Of a stretch of 64,000 bases of DNA, positions 15,301 to 45,029 are shown piece after piece (the stretch's first letter is position 1; each line of letters begins with the position of its first letter). Both the position numbers and the translations under genes were made by a program. Source of the DNA: Schmidtea polychroa. Its lineage: Eukaryota. The DNA lies in NCBI GenBank assembly GCA_044892525.1, contig CM097887.1:80826397-80890396 (forward strand), given 5' to 3'. The notes under the pieces were generated by a model. That model was not told the origin of the DNA. It ran no database searches and worked only from the letters and a program-made list of their open reading frames with translations.

Positions 15301-16103
15301 GTCTGCCAACCCTTCGAAACCTAAACGTCGCCAATTATCCAGAGCGGAGCGTAAGAAGCGTCAACGCGAACGAGCAATCGTCAAACAACGAGAACTATCT
15401 TCCAACCACCCAAGTACTTCGAATGACCCCCCCGTAACGATCGATCTAACCGTAGGGATCCCAGGGCGAATAATATCTGCCGCTGGCGTGACTTGGGAGG
15501 AGAATGCCTCCGAGGTTTTTGATCTAGATGAACTATTGGCGGATGCAGAATGGGAGAAGTGAGAATCGCAACACAATACAACCGTGCAGAGTGTTAATGG
15601 ACAAATAAACTATCATGACTCCTTTTCCTCTTAATCCATTTTCCACTAAGTGTACTCGTTATATAGTGCCATAATTATATAGTGTATTATGATAATAGAA
15701 TAGAGAAATTTGTGGGTTATTTCTTGTTGTTGTTTTGATTTAAATAGTTGTTGTAAAGGTTTAGAGTAGTGTTCACAAAGTGATCCATAAAGCGAGAGTA
15801 AATTTTGAGTCCGAGAGGCAATAGTCAATTTTGTGTCAAATTATGGGACAGGGTAGAGAGAGAATCTGATGAGGTAAACAGACGTAAGTCCTTCCATCGG
15901 CAGTCAGCAAGGGAAGTCGAGGCCTCAGTAAGGAGTAGGGGCACATTTCCAACGTGAAGCAATTCGCGGGTGCTATGTTGGAGAGTAAGTTGTGCGGGGT
16001 CCTGCTCCGGGTTGACACGGGCGTATGTAGCGTGATGATATGGGCACGCATCCCCTAGACAAAGATGTAGATTGAGCAGAGTCAACCGAGCGCTACCCCA
16101 GCA
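12355..16103 (+). repeat. 5' LTR (3,749 bp)
   Basis: Direct repeat of 38828-42618. By eye I counted 7 substitutions and 3 indels (11, 32 and 1 nt). AATAAA at 15604. Confidence 0.97.
14734..15562 (+). CDS. LTR-encoded ORF (~258 aa if a 52-nt intron 14758-14809 is spliced); putative nuclear regulatory protein
   Basis: 253-codon open frame intact in both LTRs. The upstream ATG joins in phase 0 through GTAGAA...CTGAT..polypyrimidine..CAG. Contains CxxC plus coiled coil, a basic KRRQ..RKKRQRER tract and an acidic-aromatic C-terminus. Confidence 0.65.
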
Positions 16104-16110
16104 TAATCTT

Positions 16111-16129
16111 TGGGGGCTCAGCCAGGATT
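16111..16129 (+). promoter_or_regulatory. Primer-binding site, tRNA-Pro-like
   Basis: TGGGGGCTCAGCCAGGATT versus the tRNA-Pro complement TGGGGGCTCGTCCGGGATT (3 mismatches), 7 nt downstream of the 5' LTR. Confidence 0.75.
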
Positions 16130-16393
16130 AATATGGAATTTCTGTCGAATAATGTGAATTCACCGGGATTATCGATTTCAATTAGTGGGCGAATGCAAAT
16201 TGACTAATGCCTATCGAATCTTATTATAAATCACGATTAGAAAATAATAGAATTAAAGATATAAATAAAGTAAATAATAGGGAAATAGGATAAAAATAAA
16301 ATAAATTATAACGATTTAAAAAGAAAAATGTTTGATGAAACAACCATTAATTAGCTGTATATTATTAAAATTTTTTTTCTTTTCTCAATAGAC

Positions 16394-16879
16394 ATGACGG
16401 AATTCGCAGAACAGATGCAACAATTAATTAATTTCATTAATATAGAAAACGACCCTATTAAAACACTCATACAAAAAAGAAAGCGAATCAACAGCATTCT
16501 ACTCCAAGCAATCGGACACACACCAGTCGTACCTAATCACGTGTTATTGGCCGCAGGTTTAAGCCACTCAGATGAAAAGATAAATCACGAAACAGTATAT
16601 CAATGGTACCTAAAACGACTAAAAAACCCGGCCCTAAATCTAGAATACGAGCGACTAAAAGATCAACTACATACAATATCAGAGGCAATCGAACAAAAGA
16701 TACAAGAGAAACTCACCAAATTGCGAACCTGTCTGTCTTGCAATCTTCGCCCTATACGCATACTATTCTTACCTTGTGGACACCTCAGTCATTGTGAAGA
16801 ATGAGTGAAAGATCTGAAACGATGTACAATATGTAAAAATGGGATAAAAGAATCCCATATGGTTTATTACGGTGATTAA
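16394..16879 (+). pseudogene. IAP-type C-terminal RING E3 ligase ORF without BIR; premature TGA at a Zn-ligand Cys codon
   Basis: CLSC..ILFLPCGHLSHCEE*VKDLKRCTICKNGIKESHMVYY continues in frame past the stop and aligns with the cIAP/XIAP pattern CxxC..FxPCGHxxxCxxC..CPIC. Confidence 0.85.
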
Positions 16880-17435
16880 AACGACTAACCAGATGCAGTG
16901 ACGTATATGCGCACTAAATTGATAAAAGACCTTTGAATACGAACATATGTACTTTTAAGTGTGAAGTAACTTTAATGTTTAATTTTAGTCTCAGGATAAA
17001 TAAAAATTTTTTTTGTTATGAATTAGATATTTTATCTCTTTTAATTACATCTTTGTTTATGAGATCGAATGGAGAAGAATAAAACTAACGTGGAATTAGT
17101 CCCAATATAGGATATAAGAGTACAAACCGAGCCACCTTCGGGCGGTACGTTCTATCATAAGACAAACCAATTGGGAGGGGATAACTGATCAACCCAAGTA
17201 AGAAGCGTAGGGCGGGGTACCATCGCAAATGATGAGAAGTTTCTACGACATGACTGATCACCATGCCAATGTAGAAATGGATCATCGCGATCGTCGTGCG
17301 TTTTGAGCAAGGGGGGAAAGGGGAAACACTCTCAAGCGGTAAAGATTAAGTCGACAAATTAAAAGTAGACAGAGAAAATGGTAATCTTGAGTAAAAGAGG
17401 AAAAGAGAAGCAGAAGCATGCAAAGTGAGGAATAT

Positions 17436-17962
17436 TAAAGCCGAGCTGTTAAGTAGTCCAGCCGGTCAAGGAAAATGAAAACTGAGCTGTGAAAAGTCCA
17501 GCCAGTTCGGAGATATTAAGATCGAGTTGTTGAATAGTCCAACCGATCAGAAGGAAGAAGATTGAGCTGTTGAATAGTGCCAGCCAGTCGTAAGATCGAG
17601 TTGTTGAATAGTCCAACCGATCAGAAGGAAGAAGATTGAGCTGTTGAATAGTGCCAGCCAGTCGTAAGATCGAGTTGTTGAATAGTCCAACCGATCAGAA
17701 GAAAGAAGATTGAGCTGTTGAATAGTGCCAGCCAGTCGTAAGATCGAGTTGTTGAATAGTCCAACCGATCAGAAGGAAGAAGATTGAGCTGTTGAATAGT
17801 GCCAGCCAGTCGTAAGATCGAGTTGTTGAATAGTCCAACCGATCAGCAGGAAGAAGATTGAGCTGTTGAATAGTGCCAGCCAGTCGTAAGATCGAGTTGT
17901 TGAATAGTCCAACCGGTCAGAAGGAAGAAGATTGAGCTGTTGAATAGTGCCAGCCAGTCGTA
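17436..17962 (+). repeat. Tandem array of six 74-bp higher-order units plus degenerate leading subunits
   Basis: ATCGAG recurs at 17521, 17595, 17669, 17743, 17817 and 17891. Each unit holds two GAGYTGTTGAATAGT subrepeats. Confidence 0.95.
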
Positions 17963-19326
17963 AAGGCCTAGAAAAGCGAGAAATAGCAGTTAAGCTGCAA
18001 TGAGATAATATTTAAATTAATAGCGAAATGGAATATTAAAGCTAGCTAGAAACAAATTGAATGTAATTACGAAATTTGAGTTTAGAGAGGAAATAAACGA
18101 GCTCGTGGAAAAGATGATGGATTATAGTGAAAAAGGGAGGGGAAAAAGGAAATGAATTAAAGAGATAATGGATAATAAAGAATAGGTGAAATGATGATAA
18201 TGAGTAGAAGAGGAAAGTAACTAACTAATTAAAGGGATCCCAGTGAAGTAGAGAAACTCTACGGAATATTTTTTTTGGTTAAACCGGGAAAATGCATTTT
18301 TATTGGTTCCAGAGTAGAACCGAGTGGGATAATAGTAAATATGAAAAGTAAAATAGCGGCAACAGCGCAAAAGGAATAAGAAAACGAAGGGGGGTAATAA
18401 GCAGAGACCGACAACGACCTATTTATACTATAATTGATAAAGATAGATAATTATTTTGACTTTATAGATAATTGTTACTACCCCATATAGATAATTTAAA
18501 ATCGACGAAAAATACGGGCTGATGGGAAATTATAACCCGCGGAAAAGAGTTCACAAAAGATAGGGAAAAACAAACAGAAACCTAAAAGGTGTCTGTGTTT
18601 GAATGTTGCAGAAAGAATGATGAAGTCGTGTAAGCAGATGCAACACGAGATCATTTTTTCATTTTAGATATCAAACCAAGCCAGCCAATCAAGCCAATCC
18701 AGAACCTGCACAAAAGGAATTCGAGGAAATCGACAATCGACCAAGAATAAATCCATTCAGAACCCGCACCGAGAAACACAGCAACCGGAAGACTCCAGAA
18801 CGGAAGAAGATACAGATAGCGACATCTCCAACTTCGAACGAATCACCGATATATTCAACCTCATAGTATTAGCAGCCATCTGTCAAGGACTAGTAAATCT
18901 CCTCAGAATCGCAGTAGCAGACTCATACCGAACAATTTACGAAGGAAACTTCATCAGAACCCAATCCACCCAATTCAGTAGCCGCTAATTACAAGGAAGC
19001 GTAAGAAAAGAATCACGGATAAACCTCATCTCAGATCATCAAGTAAGTCAGGCGACGTATTATTTTCAGGAGACGAATTACAACAACTCAAAAGAGGACG
19101 ATCTATTAAACATCAAAGAGGAATATCACAAGGAGCAAGAAGAACCAATCAAGTACCCATATTTGACCAAGAAAATCTCGGATACACCCCTAGTCGATCT
19201 CGAAGCAGAGAAAGTCTGTCCGATATCACTAATAGTTTAGCAACGTCAACCGAAGAATTATCAGCCCAAAGTTTAGTCACATCGTTAGACAATTTAAAAG
19301 AAACAGACGAATCTAGAACACCAATC

Positions 19327-20841
19327 ATGACGAATGTCGTAAAAACCGACGAGTATAAAGAGAAGTTTAGAGGAGAACCGTTCAATGGAAATGCAAACAA
19401 GTTAGCAACGTTTATAACTAATTTTGAAGTTTATATCACGGTGTGTGGATGGACACCCGAAGCAATTAGCAAAAGGATGCCGTTGTTTTTGTGCGATAGC
19501 GCATTAGAAGTATATTTAGAAGCTAAAGAGAGAGATACGAAATTAGAGAAGTGGGAAGATATCAAAACATTCTTGAAGAAAACCTTCGGAGCCAGTAAGC
19601 CAATCAACCAGGCGTTGGGCGAACTAGCAAATAGGAAACAAAGAGCAAACGAATCGATAACATTATATGCCAGTGAATTACGGAGATTAGCGAAGAAAGC
19701 AATGAATGGAAAATTACCCGAGGAAAATCTGATCGGCTATTTCATAGAGGGATTACGCCGAGAAGAGGTAAGAGCCTCAGTAGGCTGTCAAATGTGCAAA
19801 ACGTTAGAGGAAGCCATAGACTGGGCTACAAGATGCGAGCTCCACCTTCCAGTTCAAATGAATATTATGCAAGAGGATGGGAGGATAGCGACAGCAATAG
19901 CGAAAGCAGATACCGGAGATAACAACAATCAGGAACCGAAAATGAACCAATTTATACCAGGAGCGCATCAAATTTTCAAACCACCACAAGGACGATCAAA
20001 TGGGAAAAATGGTAATCGTAACAACCTGAATAACGAGAACAACTTTAATAATCGACGAAGTTTGAACGATAACAAGCAATGCCGAACATGCGGTAAACCA
20101 GGACACTGGGACAGAGATTGTTATAGAAATGCAAATTGTAATCGTTGCGGACGGCGTGGACATACGGAAAATATATGCCAATTGAGAGGTTGTTTTAACT
20201 GTGGTCAGCCAGGTCACATCTCCAGAGACTGCCGAGAAAGGGGCCAACAACAACGACCGCCACAGCGAAATACTAATTATGTATCGAATCCGCAACGACA
20301 AAGTAACCCTGGTGAAAGAAAACAAATGAACGTTATGCAGGAAATCTCACAAATGAAACAGATGATGCAACAAATGATGAGACCAAGACAAGAACCAGCA
20401 CCACATCAAACCCAGAATATACGTATGATGAGGAGTACCGAAAATCTCAACAGTTATGAAGTACATCAACATGTACAAGAATGGCAAAGACTACAGGCCG
20501 AGGAAGAGAGGATAAAACAAGAACGCAACCAACAACGACAAGAACAACCATTGCGAATAAATATGATGAAGTTAGTAAAAGACATGAAAAGCCAGTACTG
20601 TTACAATTACGGGAAAAACCCAAGGGTAGTACCCATGACTGAACCAGAAAAGGTAAAAGAAACAACAACGGAAATGAAAACAGGGAATTCAACCACGATC
20701 TTAAAAGGGAACCAGAGAATTCAGAAAATATTCTGGAAAAAGATAAAAGATAAAATAGAAAAGAAACATGAAGAAACGGAAATAAGAATAAAAGAGGAAA
20801 ACAACCAAAACAAGGAGCAAATCAGTCAGCTAAACCACTAA
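19327..20841 (+). CDS. gag: Gag: capsid domain plus three CCHC zinc knuckles
   Basis: Retrotransposon gag-like N-terminus (PFNG..FITNFE..W..MPLFL..ALEVY). Knuckles CRTCGKPGHWDRDC, CNRCGRRGHTENIC and CFNCGQPGHISRDC. Confidence 0.95.
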   Translation: MTNVVKTDEYKEKFRGEPFNGNANKLATFITNFEVYITVCGWTPEAISKRMPLFLCDSALEVYLEAKERDTKLEKWEDIKTFLKKTFGASKPINQALGELANRKQRANESITLYASELRRLAKKAMNGKLPEENLIGYFIEGLRREEVRASVGCQMCKTLEEAIDWATRCELHLPVQMNIMQEDGRIATAIAKADTGDNNNQEPKMNQFIPGAHQIFKPPQGRSNGKNGNRNNLNNENNFNNRRSLNDNKQCRTCGKPGHWDRDCYRNANCNRCGRRGHTENICQLRGCFNCGQPGHISRDCRERGQQQRPPQRNTNYVSNPQRQSNPGERKQMNVMQEISQMKQMMQQMMRPRQEPAPHQTQNIRMMRSTENLNSYEVHQHVQEWQRLQAEEERIKQERNQQRQEQPLRINMMKLVKDMKSQYCYNYGKNPRVVPMTEPEKVKETTTEMKTGNSTTILKGNQRIQKIFWKKIKDKIEKKHEETEIRIKEENNQNKEQISQLNH

Positions 20842-22107
20842 ATGCTACAAGAATTGGAATCAGAAGAAACAACGATATTTGAAAGAAGGAAACTAAAGCG
20901 AGTACCACGGATGAGGAATCTGCGAATCAACATGATGAAAAGGACAGAAGATGCGACATTGTCAGACGAAGAGGAAGACTATGTGAGTAGTTTGGGTGGA
21001 GAAATACTACAGCTAAACGAAACTAGCGAACCTCCAAAGGGGGAAATCAAAGAGGAAGAAAGCGAAAGCGAGATAACCAGTGAAAGTGAAGACGAGGATA
21101 TCGAATTAAAGTTGAGGAAAGTGAGGGAGGAAGCGATAAAACAAGTAGCTGAAATACTCCCGGTGGTAGTGAGAAACCAAGAGTTCATCGATGTAATACC
21201 ATTCAGGCGATTCGTACAAAAAGTGATGAAATTGGAAAGAAACGAGAAAGATTTAATACCAAGCGAAGAAAAGTTGATAATAAAAAAGTATATGGAAAAA
21301 ATGAAGCAGGTCGATACCACTCGATATGTAATAAAAATCGGAACGAGTAAAGGACTTGAAAGGATATGGATTAAAAACACAGTCACCGACGAACTTTTCG
21401 ATTGGATACGAGAGCACTTAGGTAGCTCGAGGAAAAAGGAGTACCTATACCAATATCAAGGAGAGCAAGTTAAACCAGATATGCACTTAGTAGACGCACT
21501 GATCTGGCCAGGAGAAACGCAAATACTAAAGTTGCACAAAGAAAAACAACCAGCCAATCTTTACGATTGGGCTAAAGATGCCAAGGCAGAATATGATTTC
21601 AATATCAAATTGAAATTAGAACAAATAAAACAATGTACTCTGAGACGAAACCTGGACAAGCTGATCAAGCAAATTCAAGAACAAGTAGAAGACAACTGGG
21701 ATTTACTCATTACCGGACGAGCCCCAGCCATATACGAACTAATGAGCCGATTGCGAGATACAGAATTGCTCCGAATGAGTGATTGGAGAACCATAAATTT
21801 GATTCACAAATATGGAAGGTTAAAAGAAACCCAGCCACAGAAGTTAGAAATAACCATATGGTTACCGAACGAAGAGAAACGACGAATAAAAATGAGCAAT
21901 CAGAGTACAGTGGATGATTTGGTATCAAAGATAAACCAAGAGATAACGGAAAAGGTACGTAGCGAAAGTAGTGATGGTATGGTAGATGATGTAGTCATGA
22001 TGTACGATAAAATAATATTACGAGCGGAGGACGACACCTCGTTGAGCGAAATGGGTATGTGGGACGATCATCAGATAATCAGGATAGTACCAATGGATGA
22101 ATTTTGA
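20842..22107 (+). CDS. In-frame continuation of gag after a single TAA; two predicted ubiquitin/SUMO-like beta-grasp domains
   Basis: RYVIKIGTSKG..YLYQYQGEQVKPDMHLVDALIWPGETQILKL (21322-21540) and LEITIWLPNEEKRRIKMSNQSTVDDLVSKI..MMYDKIILR..TSLSEMGMWDDHQIIRIV (21838-22090). Confidence 0.6.
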   Translation: MLQELESEETTIFERRKLKRVPRMRNLRINMMKRTEDATLSDEEEDYVSSLGGEILQLNETSEPPKGEIKEEESESEITSESEDEDIELKLRKVREEAIKQVAEILPVVVRNQEFIDVIPFRRFVQKVMKLERNEKDLIPSEEKLIIKKYMEKMKQVDTTRYVIKIGTSKGLERIWIKNTVTDELFDWIREHLGSSRKKEYLYQYQGEQVKPDMHLVDALIWPGETQILKLHKEKQPANLYDWAKDAKAEYDFNIKLKLEQIKQCTLRRNLDKLIKQIQEQVEDNWDLLITGRAPAIYELMSRLRDTELLRMSDWRTINLIHKYGRLKETQPQKLEITIWLPNEEKRRIKMSNQSTVDDLVSKINQEITEKVRSESSDGMVDDVVMMYDKIILRAEDDTSLSEMGMWDDHQIIRIVPMDEF

Positions 22108-22146
22108 ACAAGAGACGTAACGTATCAAAAAGAAATACGAGACCGG

Positions 22147-23523
22147 ATGAAAACGTTATATCAAAAATCTACAGAAATAATTGAAATTCACCAACAATGG
22201 TTAAAAGAAAAGGAACTACAAGGAAAAATCACGAAACTAAGTACCAGATCCTGCAGACGAACCCCATGGGAAAGAGAGTGGAATACAGAAAATAAGGAAT
22301 GGGAAATCCGGAAAGGAATCTTCGTAGAAACAGACATTGGTGAGACAGAAAGTGAATCGGAGGAAGGAGAAGAGGAACCTCCAGAATATGAAGAGGAAGC
22401 AAGGGGACAGACATCAGATGACGAGAGCGAGACGGATGTCACATCGGAAAGCGAAAATGAAGCGAGACATATTCATGCAATGAGGAAAAAGGAACGTGAA
22501 TATGCCGATATGGACGGCGAGGAAGCGATAGAAGCAAGAGAACGAGAAGAGAAGGAAAGATATAAACAGTTAGGCGATATCTTAGCAATGGGAGCGAAAA
22601 ATCAAAAACGCCAAGTAATAGCATTGGCTAACATCATCCTAAAGACATCAGAGAATATCCACAATCTGAGAGAAATGGCGAAAACAATAGAGGAATACCG
22701 GAATATAATGAATGGTATCCAGAACAGCTAGAACAAATTACTCGAAAATGGAGAAATCAGGAATGAGCACAAGACACCCAGGAGAGGTATCACATCCGAA
22801 TCAAGTATCCGGACAAGAGCATCGAAGAACTAGAGGTGCATCCAACAACAAAGGTTAGAGAATTAAAAAAAGAAATTAGCATATGAAACTCCATTCCATC
22901 TGCAACTATTCGGAAAATCACTAGACGATAATGCAGACGTCGGAATAACACCCATGAGATTGGAAGAGACGAATGTGTTAACAATGGCGGAAACGTTGGG
23001 AAAACCGTTGAAAAGGAAAAGCAAAAATAATAAACCAACTAAAGGCAGTTTGAGTACTCCAAGTCCGAACAAAGCACCAAGTAAATCTAATGAAACCGAA
23101 GAAGTTGAAGAGATAATCCTGGAAGATAGCGACGATGAACCAGGAGAAAGATCACCGCTATTAGTGAGATGGCCGACAGGAGCCGAAATGTGGACTAACA
23201 ACCAACCATCAACAAGTTATCAACAACCAACAAAATTGAACATCGAAGAAATCATCGACAATACTACGGAAACCGAAACGGATGAACAATTCAAGAAGCA
23301 AAGAGAACCAACAAGAATAACACCAGAAGGGCAAACTGATAAAATAATAGATGAATGGAATGAGTGGCTGAGAAATAACGATAGCTCATTACCCAGAACG
23401 AATAACGAAAGAAATCCGAATTACGAAAATACCAGAGAAGCCGGAGCGATGATGGAAAACGGGCAAAAGGAAGACCTAAGAAACAAGGAGAAAAGTCTGA
23501 GTTCAAAACCAAGGAACAATTAA
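22147..23523 (+). pseudogene. Disrupted polyprotein segment: acidic region, a third ubiquitin-like domain (22785-22985, frameshifted in an A7 run) and a low-complexity linker
   Basis: 22147 is in frame with the previous ORF. Removing one A at ~22870 gives YHIRIKYPDKSIEELEVHPTTKVRELKKKLAYETPFHLQLFGKSLDDNADVGITPMRLEETNVLTM, which is ubiquitin-like. Confidence 0.6.
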
Positions 23524-23546
23524 AGCAAGAACAAGGGGAAGTTCGA

Positions 23547-26500
23547 TTGGAAAAGTTAGATAAAATAGTATGGGATCTAAAAGAAGCTCAACCAACGATC
23601 GAAAGAGGAGAAAAATGGATACGAGAATTGATCAAAGATATGTTAATAATAACAAACCCACAACTTAGACGTTTGTGGCAACGGAAAGTAGCGAGTGTGG
23701 AAGCTAGACAATTATGGCACATCGTATCAAGGATAATCCCAAAGTTAATCAAAGAGAAAACGAAAACCACCAAAACGGATTGGGATGAAACAAAGAGAGT
23801 GATTGAACAGCTCACGACAAATGCAAATGATGACGAACATCATCTAGTGGTAATCACTTATTTGATGTATAATTTGATGGGATTAGCTGCAAGGAAAATA
23901 CCTAATAAACAGTTCGCAAATCACGTAGAAATGACAGTGTCAGTCATAGAAAACACTATTGAACCACATATTATCCGTGCCGGAGGATGGAAAAGACTTA
24001 TACAAGCGCCACGAAAAAACGAACAGGAAAGGTCAATGCAAGTTAGATTGAAGAAGTTGCTGAACGAGCTTGAATGGGAATTACCAATGAAAGATCCAGC
24101 CAGTAGAAAAGCGTCAATAAATTCGTTAATGATGACTATGATGATATGGATGTTGTGCACAAGTGGGGCAACGAGTTTTACCATCTACGATTGTGATAAT
24201 ATGATAATGAGAGATAAATACTCATTGAGAGATATAGAAGAATGCAGACAAGCATCACCCAACAAATTGGACATAGTAAAAACAAAAGTTACCTACCATG
24301 TATATCAAGAATCAGATTTCATCAGAACGCAAGCAAGAGAATGCGTTGTATCAAAAAAGGTACTCGCGTATTATTGCGGGCAATATTCGTATTCAACTCT
24401 CATACTACCCGGTCTAGATAAAGAAATCGTATCAATACAAAGAGAGGACTGTAAAGAGCTATTTAGAACCGGAGCGCTAAAAATGCATAACGGAGTGACG
24501 ATACACGGACAAACCGGAATGATAAAAACCGAAAGTGTTTATGTATCCGGAAAGGTGAAATCATCAGATGGGTCATGTAACGGAGGTACGTATACAATCC
24601 GAGGGGAGGTAATATCGGGAGTAGTAGTGATCGAGTCCTATACGGTTGAATTAAAAGAATACGAAGCGCAATTTGACGCAAATAATTACCAAATGAAAAC
24701 CAACCCGGCATGTAGGGCTACAGAAAACGTATGCAAGACAGGAGTATCAACTATAATCTATGAAGCTAACACGCAAAAATGCCGACTCCAATTGTTAAAA
24801 AGTGCTTTGTTTAATGAAGTAAAAGGGGAAATTTATGAGAACGAAAATGACGAGGATGGAAACGAAAGAGTGAGAATGCGAAATGGAAAACCAATGCCAC
24901 CATCTCCCAGAGAAAAAAGACTCTCAACGCAGAAAACACCAACAACACTAATCACCGACGATCCAGATCTAGGTATGAGATTTATCAAAGAGAAAGAAAC
25001 CACCAAATGCGACAGTATAGTATATAAAACCAATTACGCGGGTATCTATATGTCGAGACAAATAATCGATAGAGCAGTGGGAAAGATAGCAACGGAGGAC
25101 GTAAAACTATACTTATATGCAAATAATAAAATGGACTTTCTGTTTCATCGCGGACAGACGACGTTGCAAAAAGTATATTACGATCTTATACAAAACGATT
25201 GTTCGTTGAATAAAGAAATACTGAAAACAAAGCTGGCTATTGCGATAACGCACCCAGATAACACGATGCCATCACTCCCATTACCTGATGGACATTTTGG
25301 TAGAATGGTGGGAGAAGTGATGTACACATACCAGTGTACCAAGACGTATGCACGAATGCCCGAAAAATCCTCACTACCCGAAAAGAAATGTGCAAACGAA
25401 TTAGAGATTCGTTATAAAGGACAAAATCGATTCGTCCAACCAGTCACCAGAATTACGAACCCAGTAGGCTTCTACCCAAATCTATTTAACTGTTCTAATG
25501 CGTACGGACCATTGTATGAAAGACCCGATGGGAAATGGATAATGTTACCAGTAAAAACCATAACAGAGGAGCCCAAGAAATTTGGATTAATAGAACTCGC
25601 CACGGAACAAGTCTTCAAACCCATTGACGTATCAAACGGGGGTATGTATGCCCCAGAAGATTTAGAAATAGCTCGGCTTAACGTATTATTCCCCGCAAGG
25701 CGAGAATCTATATTGTCAAACATGGTCACAATAACTGGGGGAACGAATTACCAATCAGGCCCAAACTATGAACTACTGCTGTCACCAGACCATTTCCAAC
25801 AAGCAACCTCAAATATGATGAAAGCAATGTGGGGAAGATTCTTAGTTTTTGGACAAATGATGGCCGGAATATTGGGGATCATACTCATAATTCAGATAGT
25901 CAGAGTAATACTAACACAAATGTTAGCTTGTTTTGATATATACAAGAGAGAAAAGAAAGTAAATTGGAAAATGATAGTAGGATTTCTACCATTCCTAGCT
26001 AAAACCATGGTTTTACATGGTCACTCAAAAGACATTCATCGGATTAAGCGATTGATCAAAATACTAACAAAGATTAAAGGAACCGACGAGGAAGTAGGCA
26101 GACGATTCCGGAAAGTAATGTACGATGAAGCAACAAGACGACAACTGAAAAAGAATAAGCCAAAATTTTTGGACCGATTCAGAAGTCAATCATCTAACAG
26201 CGATAGTGACGACGATGATAACGGGAACGATAAATGTCTATATCCAAACAGAAACCCAAACGAAAAACCAATGGAAACAGCACCATATTGGGAAAAGGAA
26301 AAGACAAACACCTGGATCGCCAATGGAAGCTATATACCACCGGATATCGTGGGACCACAAGCAGCTTTGACCATGACACAAAATATGTATCCGCAATTAC
26401 CGAGTCAACCCGGTATGCATTATATGCCAACGCGACGTACCAAAAGCGTAGATCAAGCAGATGACGTACGAACAATAGCAGCAATGAATTCACCTGGAGG

Positions 26501-26993
26501 TCCAGCAGTGACAGTCATGATTCAAATCAATGGTAAAGAAACCAATGCTATGATAGACACAGGAGCTAATGTATCAGCGATAGCGATTAATCAAATTCCC
26601 AGTAAGCACTGGAAAGATATCGAATCAACCACAATCCACATCATAGCATGTAGTAAAGAAACAGTGGACGTGGTCGGAAGATGGTGGACTACATTGAGAT
26701 ACCAGGACAACGAAATTGAAACGTATTTGGCAGTAATACCAAAACTTAGCGTACCATGCATAATCGGAACGGATTTGATCCCAGAATTATTAAAAGAAGT
26801 GGTAATTGACTTAACAACCATGTGCCTAAAAGACAGAACAGGCAGAATATGCAAAATGAATGCCATAATCAGATGTCCAGAGAAAATTGTAGTACCAGCA
26901 AAATCGCAGATGATTTGTCAAATAAAAGTGGATACGGGTATGGAAGGAGAAGTTATCTTTGAGCCAAGCAAATCATTCGAAAAGCGACGATAG
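23547..26993 (+). CDS. env: Polyprotein segment: Bcl-2-like domain, internal signal peptide, chuvirus/gB-type envelope glycoprotein with TM, then aspartic protease
   Basis: BH2-like IEPHIIRAGGWKRL; hydrophobic LMMTMMIWMLCTSGATS; FTIYDC..YSLRDIEEC..C..YYCG Cys pattern; TM FLVFGQMMAGILGIILIIQIV; protease MIDTGANVSAI..CIIGTD. Confidence 0.8.
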   Translation: MEKLDKIVWDLKEAQPTIERGEKWIRELIKDMLIITNPQLRRLWQRKVASVEARQLWHIVSRIIPKLIKEKTKTTKTDWDETKRVIEQLTTNANDDEHHLVVITYLMYNLMGLAARKIPNKQFANHVEMTVSVIENTIEPHIIRAGGWKRLIQAPRKNEQERSMQVRLKKLLNELEWELPMKDPASRKASINSLMMTMMIWMLCTSGATSFTIYDCDNMIMRDKYSLRDIEECRQASPNKLDIVKTKVTYHVYQESDFIRTQARECVVSKKVLAYYCGQYSYSTLILPGLDKEIVSIQREDCKELFRTGALKMHNGVTIHGQTGMIKTESVYVSGKVKSSDGSCNGGTYTIRGEVISGVVVIESYTVELKEYEAQFDANNYQMKTNPACRATENVCKTGVSTIIYEANTQKCRLQLLKSALFNEVKGEIYENENDEDGNERVRMRNGKPMPPSPREKRLSTQKTPTTLITDDPDLGMRFIKEKETTKCDSIVYKTNYAGIYMSRQIIDRAVGKIATEDVKLYLYANNKMDFLFHRGQTTLQKVYYDLIQNDCSLNKEILKTKLAIAITHPDNTMPSLPLPDGHFGRMVGEVMYTYQCTKTYARMPEKSSLPEKKCANELEIRYKGQNRFVQPVTRITNPVGFYPNLFNCSNAYGPLYERPDGKWIMLPVKTITEEPKKFGLIELATEQVFKPIDVSNGGMYAPEDLEIARLNVLFPARRESILSNMVTITGGTNYQSGPNYELLLSPDHFQQATSNMMKAMWGRFLVFGQMMAGILGIILIIQIVRVILTQMLACFDIYKREKKVNWKMIVGFLPFLAKTMVLHGHSKDIHRIKRLIKILTKIKGTDEEVGRRFRKVMYDEATRRQLKKNKPKFLDRFRSQSSNSDSDDDDNGNDKCLYPNRNPNEKPMETAPYWEKEKTNTWIANGSYIPPDIVGPQAALTMTQNMYPQLPSQPGMHYMPTRRTKSVDQADDVRTIAAMNSPGGPAVTVMIQINGKETNAMIDTGANVSAIAINQIPSKHWKDIESTTIHIIACSKETVDVVGRWWTTLRYQDNEIETYLAVIPKLSVPCIIGTDLIPELLKEVVIDLTTMCLKDRTGRICKMNAIIRCPEKIVVPAKSQMICQIKVDTGMEGEVIFEPSKSFEKRR

Positions 26994-29900
26994 TTACCCC
27001 TCGCCAGAGAAATAATAACAATAAACCCAGAAGGAGTGATACCGATCAACATCACAAATTTTGAAGAGGAAGACAAAATCATCTACGAAAATGAAAGATT
27101 GGGAAAATTAACTCCAATGATCAATATCGAATTACCAAAAGTGACCAACGAGATGACCAAAGACGACGAATTATGGACAATCGACAGTACATTGTTAACG
27201 GATGCTGAAAGGAGAAAATTGCACCGATTATTAGTAGAATATAAAGATATATTCGCCATCTCAGATTTAGATTTGGGTACATGCGATCAGTGCTCGAAGT
27301 GGAACAAATTATGTGCCGGGATAGGCATGCTGTGGCACCCGGGATTCCAGGCTTTTATGCAGAAATTTTCAGTTGGGGGTGTTGCAAAACTTTGGGGGGT
27401 GTCCAACAATTTGGGGGGGGGGGTGTCCACTCATTTAATCATAAGTTTCAGGGGGTGTACCTGTTTTAATGTGGGGGGTGTCAAACAATTTTGGGGGGTG
27501 GGTAAATCCCTGCGGGATTCTCATTTTTAACCAAGCAAAATGACAGAGATTTTTTGCATGTGTAAATTTGTCTGATAAATAATCGGGGTCACAGTATAAA
27601 TAACTCAACAAACAACTTGCTGGTTTAACTAAAATAAATAAGAGAATATACCTACCTATCCATTACTGCTGCTTGGGAAATTCTTAATTGAATAGAGAAT
27701 AGAGAATAAAGAATATATATATACATACATATATGGATGTACTATGTGTGACCTTAATTGCAGTATTTGTGTGCCTATAAAATGAAATAAGTACCGGGAA
27801 ATATGAAATGAAGTGCCGGGATGCAATTCCGCCTACATAATCAATGCCGGGATAATATCCCGGCTATCCCGCCTCACTTCGAGCACTGCATGCGATGTTA
27901 CCCTACATGCAATACCACTCATAGACGAAACCCCAATTGCATTGAGACCATACAAGCTAGCAGAAATGCAAAAAGAAATAGCCGAAGCAGAAGTACAAAA
28001 AATGTTAGACGCAAAAGTGATCGAACCAAGTTGCTCACCTTGGCAATTCCCAGTGGTCATGGTGAAAAAGAAAGATGGCACCCAACGATTCTGTATCGAT
28101 TATCGAAAGTTAAACGCAGTAACCAAGAGAGATACCTATCCATTGCCGGACATCAATGAAATGTTACTCATGTTGCAAGGGGCAGCATATTTTACTTCTT
28201 TAGATTTAAAAAGTGGATACTGGCAGATTAAAGTCAAAGATGAGGACAAAGAGAAAACAGCTTTCACGTTGGGACGAGATCTATATCAGTTCAGAAAAAT
28301 GCCATTCGGACTGACCAACGCACCAGCATCATTTCAAAGGTGTATGAACTTTGTCACTCATGGAATCAAACAATGTATGGTATATATTGATGATTTGTTA
28401 ATCTATTCAGCGACATTCGAACAACATCTGGAGGATATCCGAAATGTATTTATTCGATTAAGACAATGGAAACTCAAGCTCAAACCCTCAAAATGCGATT
28501 GGGCAAAGGAAAAAGTCACGTTTTTGGGACACATAGTGTCAGCTAAAGGAAAGGAGCCAGATCCAAGAAACATTGAGAAAATAAAAACATGTCCAGCACC
28601 GAAAACTGTCACCCAAGTTCAGGAATTTCTAGGATTATGCGGATACTATCGCAAATTTATCAAAGATTATGCAGGAATTGCAAAACCAATCCAGGAATTA
28701 GTAAAGAAGGATATTTCGTTCATTTGGGGGAAGGAACAACAAGAGGCGTTTGAAACGCTGAGAGACAAACTAATCGAAGCACCTATCCTCGTACACCCAG
28801 ATTTCAAGAAGCCATTTCTATTGGCAACGGATGCAAGCGGGTACGCGGCAGGCGCGATTCTGGGACAATTAGACGATGAAGGAAAAGAGAGAGTAATCGG
28901 GTATTACAGTCGAACATTCAAAAAGCACGAGAAGAACTATTCGGTAACAGAACGAGAAGCATTGGCTATAATACAAGCTATCAAACACTTCCGATATTTA
29001 CTATGGGGACATGAGATATGTATAACCACAGATCACCAACCATTAATGTGGTTAGGGCAACATAAAGAAGCGTCCAGTAGACTGATGAGATGGGCCATGC
29101 AATTGCAAGAATACTCCCCATTTTTAAAATTCAAAGCGGGAAGAGCAAATGCCAACGCCGATTGTATGTCAAGATTTATTTTTCCAGATTTGGTGGATTC
29201 AGAAATGCAACGCATATGCTTAATAGTAGCGGAAGATTTAGATTTCTGTCAATTGCGAAAGGACCAACAAGAGGACGCAGAATTAAAACAAATTATCGAT
29301 TATGTAAAAACCGGAAAGACGGAGGTATATGCGAAAGATCAAAAATTAAAAGAACATATGGATAAACACCGACACCGATATATTATAGAGAAAGATTGGT
29401 TGCTGATAATGGATGGGGAAAAACGATTAATGTGTATACCGGAAAACCGACGAAAAGAGTTACTAACGCAATATCACGATGGGAGATTGGGAGGACATAT
29501 GTCATCAAAAAAAGACGTTAGCAAGAATGAAACAGAAATATTTTTGGCCAACCCTAACGGAAGACGTAACCGAATGGGTGAAAAACTGCCTAACCTGTGC
29601 AACAAGGAAAAACGCTGGATCGAAATGGAAAGCACCTTTGACGCCAATGCCGGTACCAATAGAGCCGATGACAATGATATCAATGGACATAGTTGGTTAT
29701 TACCGGAATCGGATCGAGGAAACGTTTATATTTTAGTGATTACAGACTTTCTCACGAAATTTCCAGAAGCATTCGCGATGCCAGACCAAAAAGCTAAAAC
29801 AATCGCAAAAATCTTAGTCGAAGAGATATGTTGCCGTTACGGGACACCGAAGCAAATCTTGACTGATCAAGGAACTAATTTCATGAGTGAGATAATGAGC

Positions 29901-30236
29901 GAAGTAACAAACTATTTCAAAATCGCAAAACTAAGAACATCTCCATATCACCCTCAAACCAATGGGATGACGGAAAGATTTAATGGAACACTTATACAAA
30001 TGTTATCAAACTACGTCGATCGTCACCAACGAGATTGGGATGAATACATAAATCTATGTCTTATGGCTTACAGAATGTCAATTCATGCATCAACGAAAAT
30101 GAGCCCATTTAAATTAATGTACGGGAGAGAGTGCAACTTGCCAATGGACCTGGAATACCAACCACCGATATCGCAATACATGGAGATAGATGATTATGTT
30201 TCGAAATTCAAAGAAAGAATGCAGGAGATTTGGTAA
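26994..30236 (+). pseudogene. pol: pol (RT, RNase H, integrase core), in frame with the protease across a TAG; disrupted by a MITE and two compensating frameshifts
   Basis: RFCIDYRKLN, LDLKSGYWQI, MPFGLTNAP, YIDD; TDASG, EREALA, TDHQPL; integrase TDQGTNF, YHPQTNGMTERFN. MITE removal gives DLGTCDVTLHAIPL in frame. The zinc-finger CxxC sits in the alternative frame (29479-29736). Confidence 0.97.
27288..27888. mobile_element. 601-bp hAT-type MITE inserted in pol
   Basis: Perfect 14-bp TIR CAGTGCTCGAAGTG. 8-bp TSD CATGCGAT (27280-27287, 27889-27896). Subterminal GCCGGGAT repeats. Confidence 0.95.
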
Positions 30237-33200
30237 ACTGCGGGATTAAATATCAAGTTCTACCAAGAAAGTTATAAAGATTTACACGATCGAAAGAAAA
30301 ACGTGAAGCAACATACGTTTCAAACAGGCGATTGGGTGATGATCGAGACCCCAGAATTAATTCCCGGAACCACAAGAAAGTTACAACGGAACGGAAAAGG
30401 GCCATATGAGATCGTGTTCGTAGGCGAAACCAATGTAAGAGTGAAATTGGTAAATAATCCATTCACCAGGCCAATATACGTAAACGTGGCACGATGCAAA
30501 TCAATTCCAAAAACAGCCACCAGTCAACCAGAAGGCCGTACATTAACCACACGTTCGCAAACCTACAGAATGAACATGATGCAACAACTCGCAGAACCTA
30601 TCACTGGACGATTGGGCATACAACCATCGGAAGCTGAAAAAATCGTACGAGAGGTAAAGATAAAATTACCCGGATGGGCAAAAGATCGATTAGATTTCGA
30701 AATATTAGGAGGATTATTGACGATGATCGAAAACTATGCAAACAGAGAGAGGACACATCCGTTATTGCGAGTAGTTAAAAGTCAATGGCCAATATTATTT
30801 ACAATAACAGATCATTATGGAGACACACCATTACACAAACTCATGAAAGTAGGTAACAACGAGCAAATACTAGAAACAATAGAAGCATTTCACGACTGCA
30901 AGCGATCAACAGAACAAGAAAACAACCAAGGCTACACACCATTAATGATAGCAGCAAACAGAGGCAAAATAAAAGACATTATAACCGCATTACTTGATAC
31001 TGGATCAAAAATAACTACACAAGATCACGAGCGGAAAAACGCACTACATCATGCTATCGAAGGGAAAAGTACCGAGGCGTTCACGTCGTTGATGGAACTA
31101 CTATCATATGAGGACAATCAAGAAGTCGGAAACATGTATGATGGATTATTAACAGCGATCAAAGAGAAACTGACAACAATTACCGGAGTATTAATCACTT
31201 GGAGAAACCCAATTAAAAATAATTATATGATCAACGTAAACGAAGCATTCACGAGAGGAGAGAACACGCTTATGAGAGAAGCTATGAAAGGACATCATTT
31301 ATTCGAAATCCCGAATCAATTACTAGAACGAGGAATAACATTCACAAATCATAAGGATGAGCAGTTATTAAAAAAGCGAATTGACACATTCGAAAAATCA
31401 ATATTCCAATTCATTACTCAGGTACGAAATAAATATTGGGAAACGGTAAGTGTGTTATACATGATGGACACGATGAACAACATCCGCGAGAATTACCTAG
31501 ATATTATTCAAATACTTACCGCAGAGGAACGAATCAATAATCCAACCGGAAAGAAAATGAAAATAAGGCATGGGAAATCAAGAGAACCAAAGTCGCAAAC
31601 GAACCAAACGATCGCAAATAAAGTCATCGAAACAAATTCAATGAGTGTAGATCAAAGAGCAATAATATGCAAAGCGAAAGAAGTGTTCTTTGAGGAAATG
31701 CTAGAGCTCTCAGATGAAATAATAAAAACCGTGCATACATATGCAAGAGATCAAACAACGAATTTGGACATCGGTAAAATCAAAACCTTCTTGCCCCCAG
31801 CATTTACGATGGTAACGAAGGATTCCAGAACACCACTACAACAGGCAATATTAGCAGCGAAAGAAAATAGAGCAATAACGATCATGAGAATCCTTAGGGA
31901 TATGGGCGAGGAAACCAACACGAAAAATGAACAAGGCGAAACCGCCATGATGTATGCAGCTATAACGAAAATACACCCAAAAACACTCCACATACTACAT
32001 CAATCAGGATCGAGACTAGACGAAAAGTCAAACGAAGGGAACTCCACTATGGACTGGGCAACCATACAGCCTAATTTAGAAATGATCAGATTTATTTGCA
32101 AAAATGCGACAAGAGAAGAAGTTGAAAATATATGCAAAAACACAGCTCAATTTCAATGGAATACGGTACGGAAAAATCTAGAAGCAATGAAATTATTATT
32201 AACATGGAGAGTACCACAAAATAATAAATATGCGATAAATGTAAACGAATTCTACGAAAACGGAGAAAACGCGATGGTAAAGAATACATTAACTAAAGGG
32301 GGGACACCAAAAATTATTTTAATAGTACTAAACAGAGAAGACCTCAAATTCACGCAAAATCAGAACGAGCAACAACGAATTGGGAAACATCGTCGTATTC
32401 AAATGAGAGAATTAGTCAAAGAATGGAATAGAAAGAGACATGCTGCGACGGGTAGAAAAGAGTTTGAATTCGAAGCAAAGTTAGCAAGGAACAGAGTGTT
32501 AACAGCATATCGCAGATTATTGAACGATATAAATGTCGAGGACGACATTTTAAACGACAGCGGGGGAGATAAACACGATGACAATGACGGAAAAGGCCGA
32601 AAAGAGGATAAAGGGAAAAGAGAACCGGAAGAGGATAAACCGGAAAACAAGGATTCGGGTACGAGAAGAGAGGGAAACAGCCCGGGAACCAAGACCAAAG
32701 AGGAGGAAAAACCGAATAATGGAAAACAGAGGGTATGCCTACCTTTCACTAACAAAGAAATAGAAACAAATATGATCTTAATGATAATCATGCTAACCAT
32801 GATAGAGTTAGTAACAGCTCATGGAGGGACGAGAACGATAAAAGAAACCAAAGAAGCGGAGAATCAAGATAGCAAAGAGGAAGAACTAAAACAAGAAAAG
32901 AAAAAGCAAGCACAAGAGCAGCAGTGGGATTTAAAGGAAGAATGGGGCCTAAAGGAAAGGTGCATACTAGGAAGATGTATGTCTAGAGCGTATCAGAGAT
33001 TAGTACTGATAAATGAGGACACAGAACCGATAACAGAAGTAAGAATACAAGAAGCATACCGAAATCGAGACGGCAAGAGAATAACGAACGTTAAAGGAAA
33101 AGAGGTGCACCTAGGAAAAGGAGGTGAAGTAGTAATAACGCAGCTCCAACCAAGAAAAGAACACAAAGTCTGTATTTCAAGATTAGGACCAGGTGAGAGA

Positions 33201-33773
33201 TGCCATCAATATGTTACGCAGCAGCAGCCCCCGAAAGAATACACGGTTTGTATCTGGAGGAACGAATCAAAAAGGGAATGCCGACGATACCCGGGGAAAA
33301 GAGGAAAGAAAAGAAAAAACCACGACGAAAAGGACGAAGGAGGAAAGCACAAGAAAACCGGCGAGGAAGCTCAGGACAACTATGTTTCGGAGGAAGAGAT
33401 GGAAAAAATACAAAAGATGGCAAAGGAGGGTATGAACGAGGAAATAACAAGAATACGAGAGAGGATGAAAGGAAATGGCAAAAGAGGAAACGAGAAAAGT
33501 ACAGAAGCGATATCAACATTAACAAACAAGGAAAAACCAGAGAGTATAAGCGTGAAGCAGATGATGTGGATCAGCGGGATAATAATAACAGGGGCATTCC
33601 TAATCATAACGGGGGGAACAATAAAAATAATTAAATATAAACGACATCGCGGAGAACTAGAGATGACCCGAATCAGAAATTTCCAACATCGAGTGAAACG
33701 ACCAAGTGATATCAAACAAGAACAGTGGGTGGAGGCCTGGAACGCTCAGCGCCCTCCAAACTCACGTATATAG
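30237..33773 (+). CDS. Integrase C-terminus (GPY motif) fused to two ankyrin-repeat blocks and a predicted type I membrane protein
   Basis: In frame with pol across a TAA. GDWV..KGPYEI; ANK motifs GDTPLH, GYTPLMIAA, KNALHHA, GETAMMYAA; hydrophobic MILMIIMLTMIELVTA; TM WISGIIITGAFLIITGG. Confidence 0.85.
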   Translation, partial: TAGLNIKFYQESYKDLHDRKKNVKQHTFQTGDWVMIETPELIPGTTRKLQRNGKGPYEIVFVGETNVRVKLVNNPFTRPIYVNVARCKSIPKTATSQPEGRTLTTRSQTYRMNMMQQLAEPITGRLGIQPSEAEKIVREVKIKLPGWAKDRLDFEILGGLLTMIENYANRERTHPLLRVVKSQWPILFTITDHYGDTPLHKLMKVGNNEQILETIEAFHDCKRSTEQENNQGYTPLMIAANRGKIKDIITALLDTGSKITTQDHERKNALHHAIEGKSTEAFTSLMELLSYEDNQEVGNMYDGLLTAIKEKLTTITGVLITWRNPIKNNYMINVNEAFTRGENTLMREAMKGHHLFEIPNQLLERGITFTNHKDEQLLKKRIDTFEKSIFQFITQVRNKYWETVSVLYMMDTMNNIRENYLDIIQILTAEERINNPTGKKMKIRHGKSREPKSQTNQTIANKVIETNSMSVDQRAIICKAKEVFFEEMLELSDEIIKTVHTYARDQTTNLDIGKIKTFLPPAFTMVTKDSRTPLQQAILAAKENRAITIMRILRDMGEETNTKNEQGETAMMYAAITKIHPKTLHILHQSGSRLDEKSNEGNSTMDWATIQPNLEMIRFICKNATREEVENICKNTAQFQWNTVRKNLEAMKLLLTWRVPQNNKYAINVNEFYENGENAMVKNTLTKGGTPKIILIVLNREDLKFTQNQNEQQRIGKHRRIQMRELVKEWNRKRHAATGRKEFEFEAKLARNRVLTAYRRLLNDINVEDDILNDSGGDKHDDNDGKGRKEDKGKREPEEDKPENKDSGTRREGNSPGTKTKEEEKPNNGKQRVCLPFTNKEIETNMILMIIMLTMIELVTAHGGTRTIKETKEAENQDSKEEELKQEKKKQAQEQQWDLKEEWGLKERCILGRCMSRAYQRLVLINEDTEPITEVRIQEAYRNRDGKRITNVKGKEVHLGKGGEVVITQLQPRKEHKVCISRLGPGERCHQYVTQQQPPKEYTVCIWRNESKRECRRYPGKRGKKRKNHDEKDEGGKHKKTGEEAQDNYVSEEEMEKIQKMAKEGMNEEITRIRERMKGNGKRGNEKSTEAISTLTNKEKPESISVKQMMWISGIIITGAFLIITGGTIKIIKYKRHRGELEMTRIRNFQHRVKRPSDIKQEQWVEAWNAQRPPNSRI

Positions 33774-34293: not shown

Positions 34294-34378
34294 ACCAAAC
34301 CTAGCTTAAAATGTAAATAATTGTAAATAAAATATCGAACCTGTATCGATAAGAACTATATGTATATATAATTATAGA

Positions 34379-35767
34379 ATGGATAAACGACAAAGAGAAG
34401 AGTTCAGAGAGATTGTCGAACAAGTCCGAAAATCTACAACGATCAGAATACACAAACATGTTATGTGCGGAATATGTGAAAAGTTGCTAAAAGAACCCCA
34501 CCAAACCCTATGTGGATGCAGATTATGTAAGGAATGTATCAGTGAAGCAATAAAGAATAGACCACAGTGGTGCCCGGTGTGTAAAGAGACATTAATATCG
34601 AGTTTAGAAGACACTAACGAGGATAAAGCCGCAGTGAAAGACATGTTAAACACCAATCTGGGATGCAAAAATACCCCATGCGAATGGAAAGGAGTAATAT
34701 GGAAAGTAGTGCAACATATGGGAGAATGTATGTACAGAATCGGCCAGTGTGAAAGGTGCCATAAAACCATTCGAGCAAGCGAAGAAAAAGAGCATCAAAG
34801 CCAGTGTGAAGAGAGACTAGAAAGATGTAAACATTGTGGAGAAATAGATACGTGGAAAAATCTCACCAGCAAACATCACAATGTCCAAGAGGAAAAGGTA
34901 TGTGCAGAGTTCAGTGGGGAATGCCCGAACGGATGCGAGGAAGGGAGAATAATAAAAATAGCCCAACACCTAAAGGAATGTGAAAGGAAAAGAATGACAT
35001 GTGTACTCGGTAAATGGGGCTGTCAGAAGCTACTACACCGAGGAGAGTTACCACATCATTTAGTAGAAAATGCTTCAACCCACGCAGAAATGTGGTCGAC
35101 TGCGCTACAAGAAAGTGAAGAGAAAGTAAAACAAATGGAGATAGAGATAACATCGTTGAAAGTGTTAGTCAAAGAACTACTAGAAGAAAGAAAAGCGTTC
35201 GAAGAAGCCCGAGCTAACATAAAGATGCAAATAAATCGTATAGAAATCAGCAATAATCAGGCCAAGGTGCTACATCAAAAGATAACTGAGATAAATCTAA
35301 ATGAAGTAATACCAACAGCACCCTACGTGTGGAAAATAACGGGAGTAAAAGAAAGAATACGAAAAGCCAAAACCGGAGAAGAGACAAAAATAACGAGCCC
35401 CGCATTCCAGTCTTGGAAAAATGGGTACAAAATGAAAATGAAGATATATCCCAACGGGGACGGAACCGGATTAGATACAGACTTTTCGATTTTCTTTCTG
35501 TTATGCAAAGGGGAATACGACGAAATAATAGAATGGCCGTTCCAGGCAAAGATCGATATTGCACTAATGAATGACCGAAGCATCCACGAACAAAGCTTCA
35601 AGACAACGGGAAACCAAATGTGTTACCAGAGACCTACGGAAGAAGAAGGATCAGCAACGGGAGCGCCTACGTTCATCCTACAACAAAAAGTAGAGGATAT
35701 GGCGAGAAATGACACAGTATATATCAAGATGACTGTGAGGAAAGAGGGGAAGGGTAGAACGGAGTAA
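34379..35767 (+). CDS. Intact, intronless TRAF (RING, TRAF zinc fingers, coiled coil, MATH domain)
   Basis: CGIC..CGCRLCKEC..CPVC RING; Cys/His fingers; MATH YVWKI..SPAF..GYKM..IYPNGDG..FSIFF..GEYD..WPF. Confidence 0.95.
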   Translation: MDKRQREEFREIVEQVRKSTTIRIHKHVMCGICEKLLKEPHQTLCGCRLCKECISEAIKNRPQWCPVCKETLISSLEDTNEDKAAVKDMLNTNLGCKNTPCEWKGVIWKVVQHMGECMYRIGQCERCHKTIRASEEKEHQSQCEERLERCKHCGEIDTWKNLTSKHHNVQEEKVCAEFSGECPNGCEEGRIIKIAQHLKECERKRMTCVLGKWGCQKLLHRGELPHHLVENASTHAEMWSTALQESEEKVKQMEIEITSLKVLVKELLEERKAFEEARANIKMQINRIEISNNQAKVLHQKITEINLNEVIPTAPYVWKITGVKERIRKAKTGEETKITSPAFQSWKNGYKMKMKIYPNGDGTGLDTDFSIFFLLCKGEYDEIIEWPFQAKIDIALMNDRSIHEQSFKTTGNQMCYQRPTEEEGSATGAPTFILQQKVEDMARNDTVYIKMTVRKEGKGRTE

Positions 35768-35923
35768 CCCATCGAATAATGTTGTATATACTAATCTGTA
35801 TATATCGGTGTATATATCCAATAACATATTATATAATAATAGTATGAAAAACCCTAAATACGAAAACCCAAAAATGATGCGAAAATTTCCGAAAAAACAG
35901 TAACTAATGAATAAAAATTTTCC

Positions 35924-37015: not shown

Positions 37016-37127
37016 GGTGATTAAAAAGATAAAAAACTAAAAATCGGGACGTTTACCCAAACAAAAAAATTAAAGTATTGTAAAAGTATTCAAGGGACTG
37101 TAACCCAAACTATTAAATTTTATATAA

Positions 37128-37898: not shown

Positions 37899-37936
37899 AC
37901 ACCACTAAGACCAATTGTAAATATAATGAATAATAA

Positions 37937-44700: not shown

Positions 44701-45029
44701 AATAATATTGATAATAAATATTAAACTCTATTAGTATCTAATGATGGAAAAAGTAATATGGTTTAAAACATTTTATAATGTGTATTTGAAAATGAATGTT
44801 GCAGTGAGCATGCNNNNNNNNNNNNNNNNNNNNNNNNNNNNNNNNNNNNNNNNNNNNNNNNNNNNNNNNNNNNNNNNNNNNNNNNNNNNNNNNNNNNNNN
44901 NNNNNNNNNNNNNNNNNNNNNNNNNNNNNNNNNNNNNNNNNNNNNNNNNNNNNNNNNNNNNNNNNNNNNNNNNNNNNNNNNNNNNNNNNNNNNNNNNNNN
45001 NNNNNNNNNNNNNNNNNNNNNNNNNNNNN

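Follow-up and report, generated by a model that had tools for sequence, protein, structure and literature searches.

Introduction

An env gene normally lies 3′ of pol and is expressed as a separate, spliced open reading frame (ORF). In 2019 an in-frame gag-env-pol arrangement was reported for Burro, in which BCL2 was also noted (PMC6431247), and in 2026 GAG-ENV-POL errantiviruses with an Env of the herpes simplex virus/glycoprotein B (HSV/gB) type were reported in Nematoda, Bryozoa and Platyhelminthes, with Schmidtea mediterranea contributing six (Smed_errantivirus_1-6; PMC13524379). RNA interference against smedwi-2 raises Burro RNA (PMC8532177). The window investigated, meaning the whole stretch of 64,000 nucleotides that was analysed, comes from Schmidtea polychroa (GCA_044892525.1, contig CM097887.1, positions 80,826,397 to 80,890,396) and contains a Burro-type Ty3/gypsy long terminal repeat (LTR) retroelement of 30,264 bp (12355-42618) with env between gag and protease.

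An earlier note, made from the DNA letters of this window, had described such an envelope glycoprotein in the frame of pro-pol and supposed that Pol, tethered to the Env tail, might be packaged by budding. The layout is real and was correctly read, but it is already known. [quoted passage not shown] A late-domain-like motif in the Env tail, described below, provides a direct test of the idea of budding through the Env tail.

The env reading frame and its parts

An open frame of 1,195 amino acids (aa) spans 23406-26993, and no stop interrupts it from the signal to the protease. Everything that the earlier note had listed there is present, that is a signal-like segment, a Cys-rich ectodomain of about 550 aa, a transmembrane segment (TM) and a stop-free linker into the DTG protease, together with the xxYDC..SLxDIxxC..CG pattern and the FG..AG..G TM region that it had quoted. 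Features are on the plus strand unless stated otherwise. A Bcl-2-like domain (23784-23999; Pfam E 0.021, below the cut-off) stands directly ahead of the internal signal peptide, which is predicted at 24123-24176, with predicted cleavage before F-T-I-Y-D-C. The xxYDC motif is at 24183-24194, and a hydrophobic run precedes xx[YF]DC in all 11 relatives in which that end was located. The ectodomain (24177-25823; 549 aa, 14 Cys) is followed by the TM segment (25824-25943), with FGQMMAG at 25848-25868 and a TM core at 25857-25913, and, in this family, by the basic residues KREKK (25944-25958). Next comes a conserved, weakly hydrophobic helix (25959-26015), which is likely to lie on the membrane surface and not to form a second TM. 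The linker from TM to protease measures 233 aa, and the protease motif IDTGA is found at 26553-26567. In this copy the frame that env shares with the protease stops at 26991, before the reverse transcriptase (RT).

Once cleaved, the env signal would act as a C-terminal membrane anchor for the Bcl-2-like domain, as in cellular Bcl-2.

The ectodomain matched PF24664 Monjiviricetes_fusion (E 3e-69), and no match to the env family was present in any of 14 control genomes. A fold model built from an alignment of 122 sequences (pLDDT 88, pTM 0.66) displayed a long central helix at 311-358. All 36 PDB rows listed for this model were herpesvirus gB (best E 3e-14, TM-score 0.40), and the best BFVD rows were chu-like glycoproteins (E 2e-37, TM-score up to 0.63). 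With VIA-align the top five were gB chains (Z 8.2-10.1; the best with a root-mean-square deviation of 7.5 over 396 aligned residues) and rabies G came next, while the Bourbon virus and Chandipura glycoproteins ranked lower, among unrelated helices. At the level of sequence the env profile gave weak gB matches in the PDB (35 of 37 rows with E 0.0025-0.2), a phmmer search of env against the PDB sequences gave none, and neither did a search of a phage collection; the best ESM Atlas score, 0.83, was uninformative. The predicted fold is that of a class III fusion protein resembling gB and chuvirus G, in agreement with the earlier note. Because of this positive match a class I Env, of the F type or that of Drosophila gypsy, is unlikely for the modelled protein. 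Class I proteins were not among the fold matches listed, which alone does not exclude class I. Of possible furin sites there is one REKR, which falls in a loop modelled with low confidence and is not conserved in two relatives.

The membrane topology was scored with a hydrophobicity and insertion scale, which is rough and approximate and is not SignalP or DeepTMHMM. One strong TM was found between ectodomain and protease in all 13 parsed relatives (14 examined), while the conserved second helix behind it had a rough insertion free energy of +1.0 to +3.4 in 11 of the 13 and above 3.5 in two. Since a single strong TM separates the signal from the protease, the protease is predicted to be cytosolic, as the earlier note had supposed for Pol, and Pol as a whole likely lies on the cytosolic side.

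Env in other copies and families

Among 72 scored env matches in the genome, 39 lie in a single open frame of 4,732 aa (stop to stop). Fourteen copies were fetched, ten chosen because their frame was long (for one of these the gag end was not included) and four chosen as broken. The order was the same in all 14, and gag through RT formed one open frame in nine. A sample independent of env was drawn from the RT, consisting of 20 of 150 RT matches that were on the plus strand and absent from the env match list; env was situated between the Bcl-2-like domain and the protease in 18 of these. Other copies thus have env at the same position. The gag-env-pol order of the earlier note is confirmed and extended, gag being in the same frame as well in unbroken copies, but the order itself had already been published.

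The ratio of nonsynonymous to synonymous polymorphism (pN/pS) was 0.079 for env (12 ungapped copies), 0.094 for the linker, 0.045 for gag and 0.034 for the protease. The low values of env and linker indicate that env is maintained. Synonymous diversity in 33 copies showed no dip at the signal, TM, linker or protease, and gave in this respect no sign of a splice or frameshift site near env; dips within the RT reflect picking bias. In contigs of four runs (three guessed to be RNA and one unknown), no GT-AG joint that skips env was seen among the 15 joints listed, and such contigs cannot reveal splicing either way.

The same order was found in two other families of this genome. PF24664 was followed by protease and/or RT in one chain in 10 of 16 long public homologues scanned. 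Several env-pol relatives (P0003, P0004, P0005, P0006, P0016, P0152 and P0153) carry two or more tandem protease motifs behind env. The env-pol polyprotein P0008 is filed under a Flavobacteriaceae metagenome-assembled genome and is probably animal DNA in a bacterial bin.

A late-domain-like motif in the Env tail

ALIX-type motifs have a spacing of one or three residues between YP and the final hydrophobic residue. One such motif, MYPQL (26385-26399), of the form YPx(1/3)L, was noticed in the predicted cytoplasmic tail of Env; 34 copies were examined, the motif could be located in 32, and 31 of these have it intact. In retroviruses YPXnL binds ALIX, and YPXnL, PT/SAP and PPxY are the known classes of late domains (PMC8402826). 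The host has an ALIX-type V domain.

After the motif had been noticed, YPx(1 or 3)[LI] was found in all four families examined. It was present in 12 of 16 env-protease linkers, as against 1.41 in shuffles, while YPx2[LI] and FPx1/3[LI] did not occur in any of the 16. Stand-alone homologues were counted next to these (95 of the 129 proteins P0023-P0151; 34 were dropped for a length outside 600-900 aa or for want of a TM). YPx1/3[LI] was enriched in their tails (n = 40, compared with 5.1 in shuffled tails and 2.0 in ectodomain windows), and so was P[TS]AP (n = 19, expected 1.0), with PPxY in 8 tails where 2.5 were expected. When ten of the motif-bearing proteins were looked up, the five that had names were all chuvirus glycoproteins, with Tacheng tick virus 4, Wuchang cockroach virus 3, odonatan chu-related virus 136 and Blattella germanica chuvirus 1 among the viruses named.

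A predicted complex between the tail peptide and two ALIX exons of the host scored 0.00, its controls not having been folded, and so speaks neither for nor against binding. The candidate control for the motif, gypsy elements without env, consisted of 30 protease loci, of which 29 turned out to be one env-bearing family and one a host gene. In the literature searched, the coverage of which was limited (subscription journals and some supplements fell outside it), no printed claim of late domains on the tails of these glycoproteins was found. A paper on the matrix protein and budding of Chuviridae, in the part available, places late domains on other ORFs.

The element and the state of this copy

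The assignment to Ty3/gypsy is suggested by Retrotrans_gag, by the order of domains and by the published description of Burro; the Pol order protease-RT-RNase H-integrase, expected of Ty3/gypsy, was found with Pfam. The 5′ LTR (12355-16103; 3,749 bp, TG...CA) and the 3′ LTR (38828-42618; 3,791 bp) are flanked by the target-site duplication CTGT, just upstream of the former and just downstream of the latter. They differ by 9 substitutions in 3,748 aligned bases (99.8% identical) and by gaps of 43 and 1. A primer-binding site at 16111-16128, 7 nt inside the element, is complementary to host tRNA-Pro(TGG), 17 of its 18 bases matching the 3′ end (plus CCA) of the host tRNA-Pro genes. These genes form a long tandem array with a 475-bp period at C1:130.90-130.95 Mb, with 1,580 pattern matches genome-wide. 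Each LTR harbours an ORF of 266 aa (14762-15562 and 41235-42035), also seen in both other copies examined, for which no Pfam match was obtained.

Behind the 5′ LTR is an accessory ORF with a C3HC4 RING (16355-16804; zf-C3HC4_3 E 3e-5, below the cut-off), which is shortened here and longer in both other copies examined, and a 74-bp tandem repeat occupies 17432-17963 of the 5′ leader. Gag (18982-20841) contains Retrotrans_gag and CCHC knuckles and is ended by a premature stop in this copy; the homologous codon is a sense codon in all 27 copies in which it was located (7 of 34 not located). The spacer that follows (20842-23523) contains a ubiquitin-like domain (PI3K_rbd E 1e-4), acidic stretches and a PPxY at 22378-22389, and is interrupted here by a stop and frame changes. 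The gag side is thereby severed, the stops lying at 20839 and 22105 and the frame changes at about 22.7-23.5 kb. An apparent stop at 22729, considered as a lesion common to the copies, was rejected as an effect of frame offset.

The protease (DTG) and the beginning of a putative dUTPase-like domain are at 26514-26990 (RVP E 5e-10; the dUTPase-like label is taken from PMC6431247). The premature stop at 26991, upstream of RT, is absent from all 34 other copies. A secondary insertion of 601 bp (27288-27888, without assigned strand) has 14-bp terminal inverted repeats and an 8-bp target duplication. It is missing in all 34 fetched copies and is passed over in contigs of runs X1 and X2. We take it to be a hAT-like miniature inverted-repeat transposable element (MITE). 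RT, RNase H and integrase follow (27889-30236), with the integrase zinc finger locally out of frame and a stop at 30234. The polyprotein tail (30237-33773), in the frame of RT in all four copies compared, carries ankyrin repeats and, besides these, another signal-like segment (32772-32819) and another TM (33567-33623). The signal-like segment and TM behind the ankyrins would imply a second membrane protein and four membrane crossings altogether. A C-terminal ending of the ETEV type was not found in the polyprotein tail of this element. Downstream are a TRAF-like ORF with RING, coiled coil and MATH (34331-35767; MATH_2 E 6e-25), separate in all four copies, and two coiled-coil ORFs with a small membrane-protein ORF (35915-38491).

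The copy in the window is a young but broken insertion. It cannot make the polyprotein because of its stops, its frame changes and the 601-bp insert. Despite near-identical LTRs it has four premature stops (20839, 22105, 26991 and 30234), several frame changes and the MITE. Three of the four stops were checked and are private to this copy, not common to the located copies.

The element sits inside a remnant of DNA polymerase B2 (Polinton-like, minus strand; 11427-12575 and 42922-43380), the left part of which has Pfam E 4e-8 and the right part of which is assigned by position only. Elsewhere in the window are a pair of 787-bp inverted repeats (44814-46814) and, on the minus strand, a host ORF resembling GalNAc-transferase (62418-63998).

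A model of assembly and its alternatives

The assembly of a particle from this chain may be depicted as follows. In unbroken copies a single frame of 4,732 codons encodes Gag, a fusion protein predicted to be of class III, and Pol. The chain would be threaded at the endoplasmic reticulum (ER) with Gag, the ubiquitin-like and the Bcl-2-like domains (Gag-Ubl-Bcl2) in the cytosol, anchored by the env signal, with the ectodomain in the lumen and Pol again in the cytosol. Signal peptidase would probably cut the chain at the ER and so free Env from the membrane-anchored Gag-Ubl-Bcl2, while Pol would stay attached to the Env tail, which is predicted to be cytosolic. The ALIX-type tail motif would then likely recruit ESCRT and carry the enzymes into budding particles, and the protease of the element would release them once Env trimers are concentrated in the particle. 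Gag, Env and Pol would in this way be supplied in equimolar amounts, and spread from cell to cell may be envisaged. We consider the whole chain, from the single frame to ESCRT-driven budding that carries Pol, to be fairly probable, and our confidence in the architecture alone is far higher. A broader proposal is slightly less likely than not: class III glycoproteins of the PF24664 family would bear ESCRT late domains of their own (YPxL, PT/SAP and PPxY) on the cytoplasmic tail, which GAG-ENV-POL elements exploit, so that Env and not Gag would drive budding and carry Pol, a single signal-peptidase cut yielding an anchored capsid and an ALIX-recruiting Env-Pol trimer that packs its own enzymes.

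Several observations weigh against this model. The motif was recognised post hoc, in 7 of the first 13 linkers with 0.87 expected; it is missing from 4 of the 16 linkers and 55 of the 95 tails, and the tail proteins are related and not independent draws, the identity to the nearest neighbour having a median of 39%. Within 3,205 aa of the polyprotein the same pattern also occurs three more times, once on the luminal side and once in RT. The fusion of Pol to Env is not universal, as the 860-aa homologue P0002 ends behind the env tail without a protease. Two of the 20 copies picked by RT are without env, one through an internal deletion that also removes the protease and one with nothing upstream. 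The likeness of the env fold to gB is moderate, at a TM-score of about 0.4, and a doubt remains over the second hydrophobic helix which, if it crossed the membrane, would put Pol in the lumen.

The polyprotein and its topology could be as described and YPxL nevertheless serve another function, either as a trafficking signal (YxxΦ/endosomal sorting) or as a Tyr-Pro protease site, with Gag driving budding and Pol released and packaged separately. YPxL does fit YxxΦ, retroviral proteases classically cleave at Tyr-Pro and the distance from the motif to the catalytic Asp behind it is some 40-75 residues, and a separate PPxY on the Gag side is intact in 26 of 32 located copies. Against this explanation stand the tail counts, in which Y[^P]x[LI] was not enriched (15 of 95, expected 22.9) whereas YPx[LI] was (37, expected 2.7), and in which the Phe-Pro version was not enriched either (1 of 95). 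Against it, too, are the retention of the motif in named chuvirus glycoproteins, no protease motif having been found in the 95 tails, and the enrichment of P[TS]AP in this set of tails. We regard this explanation as rather unlikely, and the reading of the motif as a late domain on the Env tail is preferred. It is more improbable still that Env is not used from the polyprotein at all, with splicing or recoding producing a Gag-Pol without Env for intracellular retrotransposition and Env made from a separate RNA or serving only for effects on host membranes. A separate env would follow the usual logic of gypsy elements and retroviruses, and the two env-less copies mentioned above exist, but purifying selection acts on the frame where it runs through env and the linker, the synonymous diversity of the 33 copies does not dip at the signal, TM, linker or protease, and the env-less deletion takes out the protease as well. 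That the in-frame order is an assembly artefact, or arose when a chuvirus glycoprotein happened to insert into this copy, might be suggested by lesions in excess of what LTRs of 99.8% identity would lead one to expect. This explanation is already refuted, and its probability negligible, since the same order is found in dozens of dispersed copies, in the two other families of the genome and in public proteins, and was published independently.

Should the tail motif prove to be a genuine late domain, the model of Env-tail budding would become a testable account of how one of the most abundant elements of planarians assembles. It would also point to glycoprotein-encoded recruitment of ESCRT in chuviruses, late domains being usually sought on Gag and matrix proteins.

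Comparison with known systems

Burro, described as over 30 kb long with a single ORF of about 4,700-5,100 aa, agrees in size with the 30,264 bp and the 4,732-aa frame found here. Burro/GYPSM1, which comprises giant gypsy-like LTR retrotransposons of planarians of about 30 kb, has a giant ORF of Gag, CCHC, ubiquitin-like, BCL2-like, env, protease, RT, RNase H, integrase and ankyrins (PMC6431247), with env likewise in frame between BCL2 and protease and with MATH/TRAF cargo (PMC6431247). Burro1 differs in that its ORF1 of 4,873 aa contains MATH (PMC6431247), whereas the frame here has 4,732 codons and TRAF/MATH forms a separate downstream ORF. The element is set apart from Burro1 by the published description and is probably Burro-2, -3 or -4. 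The review likens the env of Burro to gypsy Env (F-like), noting mononegavirus hits (PMC6431247), whereas the predicted fold here is class III.

The HSV/gB-type errantiviruses share the GAG-ENV-POL order, an Env of the gB type flanked by signal and TM, an abundance of young copies and occurrence in Platyhelminthes (PMC13524379). Another family of this genome is by eye nearly identical to the Smed_errantivirus_2 row (PMC13524379), while the env described here matches none of the six Smed rows, which are partial; the nearest is Smed_errantivirus_5, at about 55% (hand count, 188 positions). No tRNA primer is tabled for the six Smed families (PMC13524379), while this element has a tRNA-Pro site.

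The capture of a chuvirus glycoprotein by a Pao element is known from the mosquito element Anakin, which is BEL/Pao and not gypsy (PMC7642597). With the glycoproteins of Chuviridae the env shares PF24664, the predicted class III fold, the start of signal and xxYDC, the TM region and the YPxL motif in the tail. They differ from it in sequence (22-27% identity over partial stretches) and in being stand-alone proteins of 600-900 aa, not part of a Gag-Pol chain. The late domains of retroviruses (YPDL in p9 of equine infectious anaemia virus, YPXnL in p6 of human immunodeficiency virus 1 and LYPAL in murine leukaemia virus) are located on Gag or matrix proteins (PMC8402826), whereas the YPx(n)L described here is located on the predicted cytoplasmic tail of a fusion glycoprotein.

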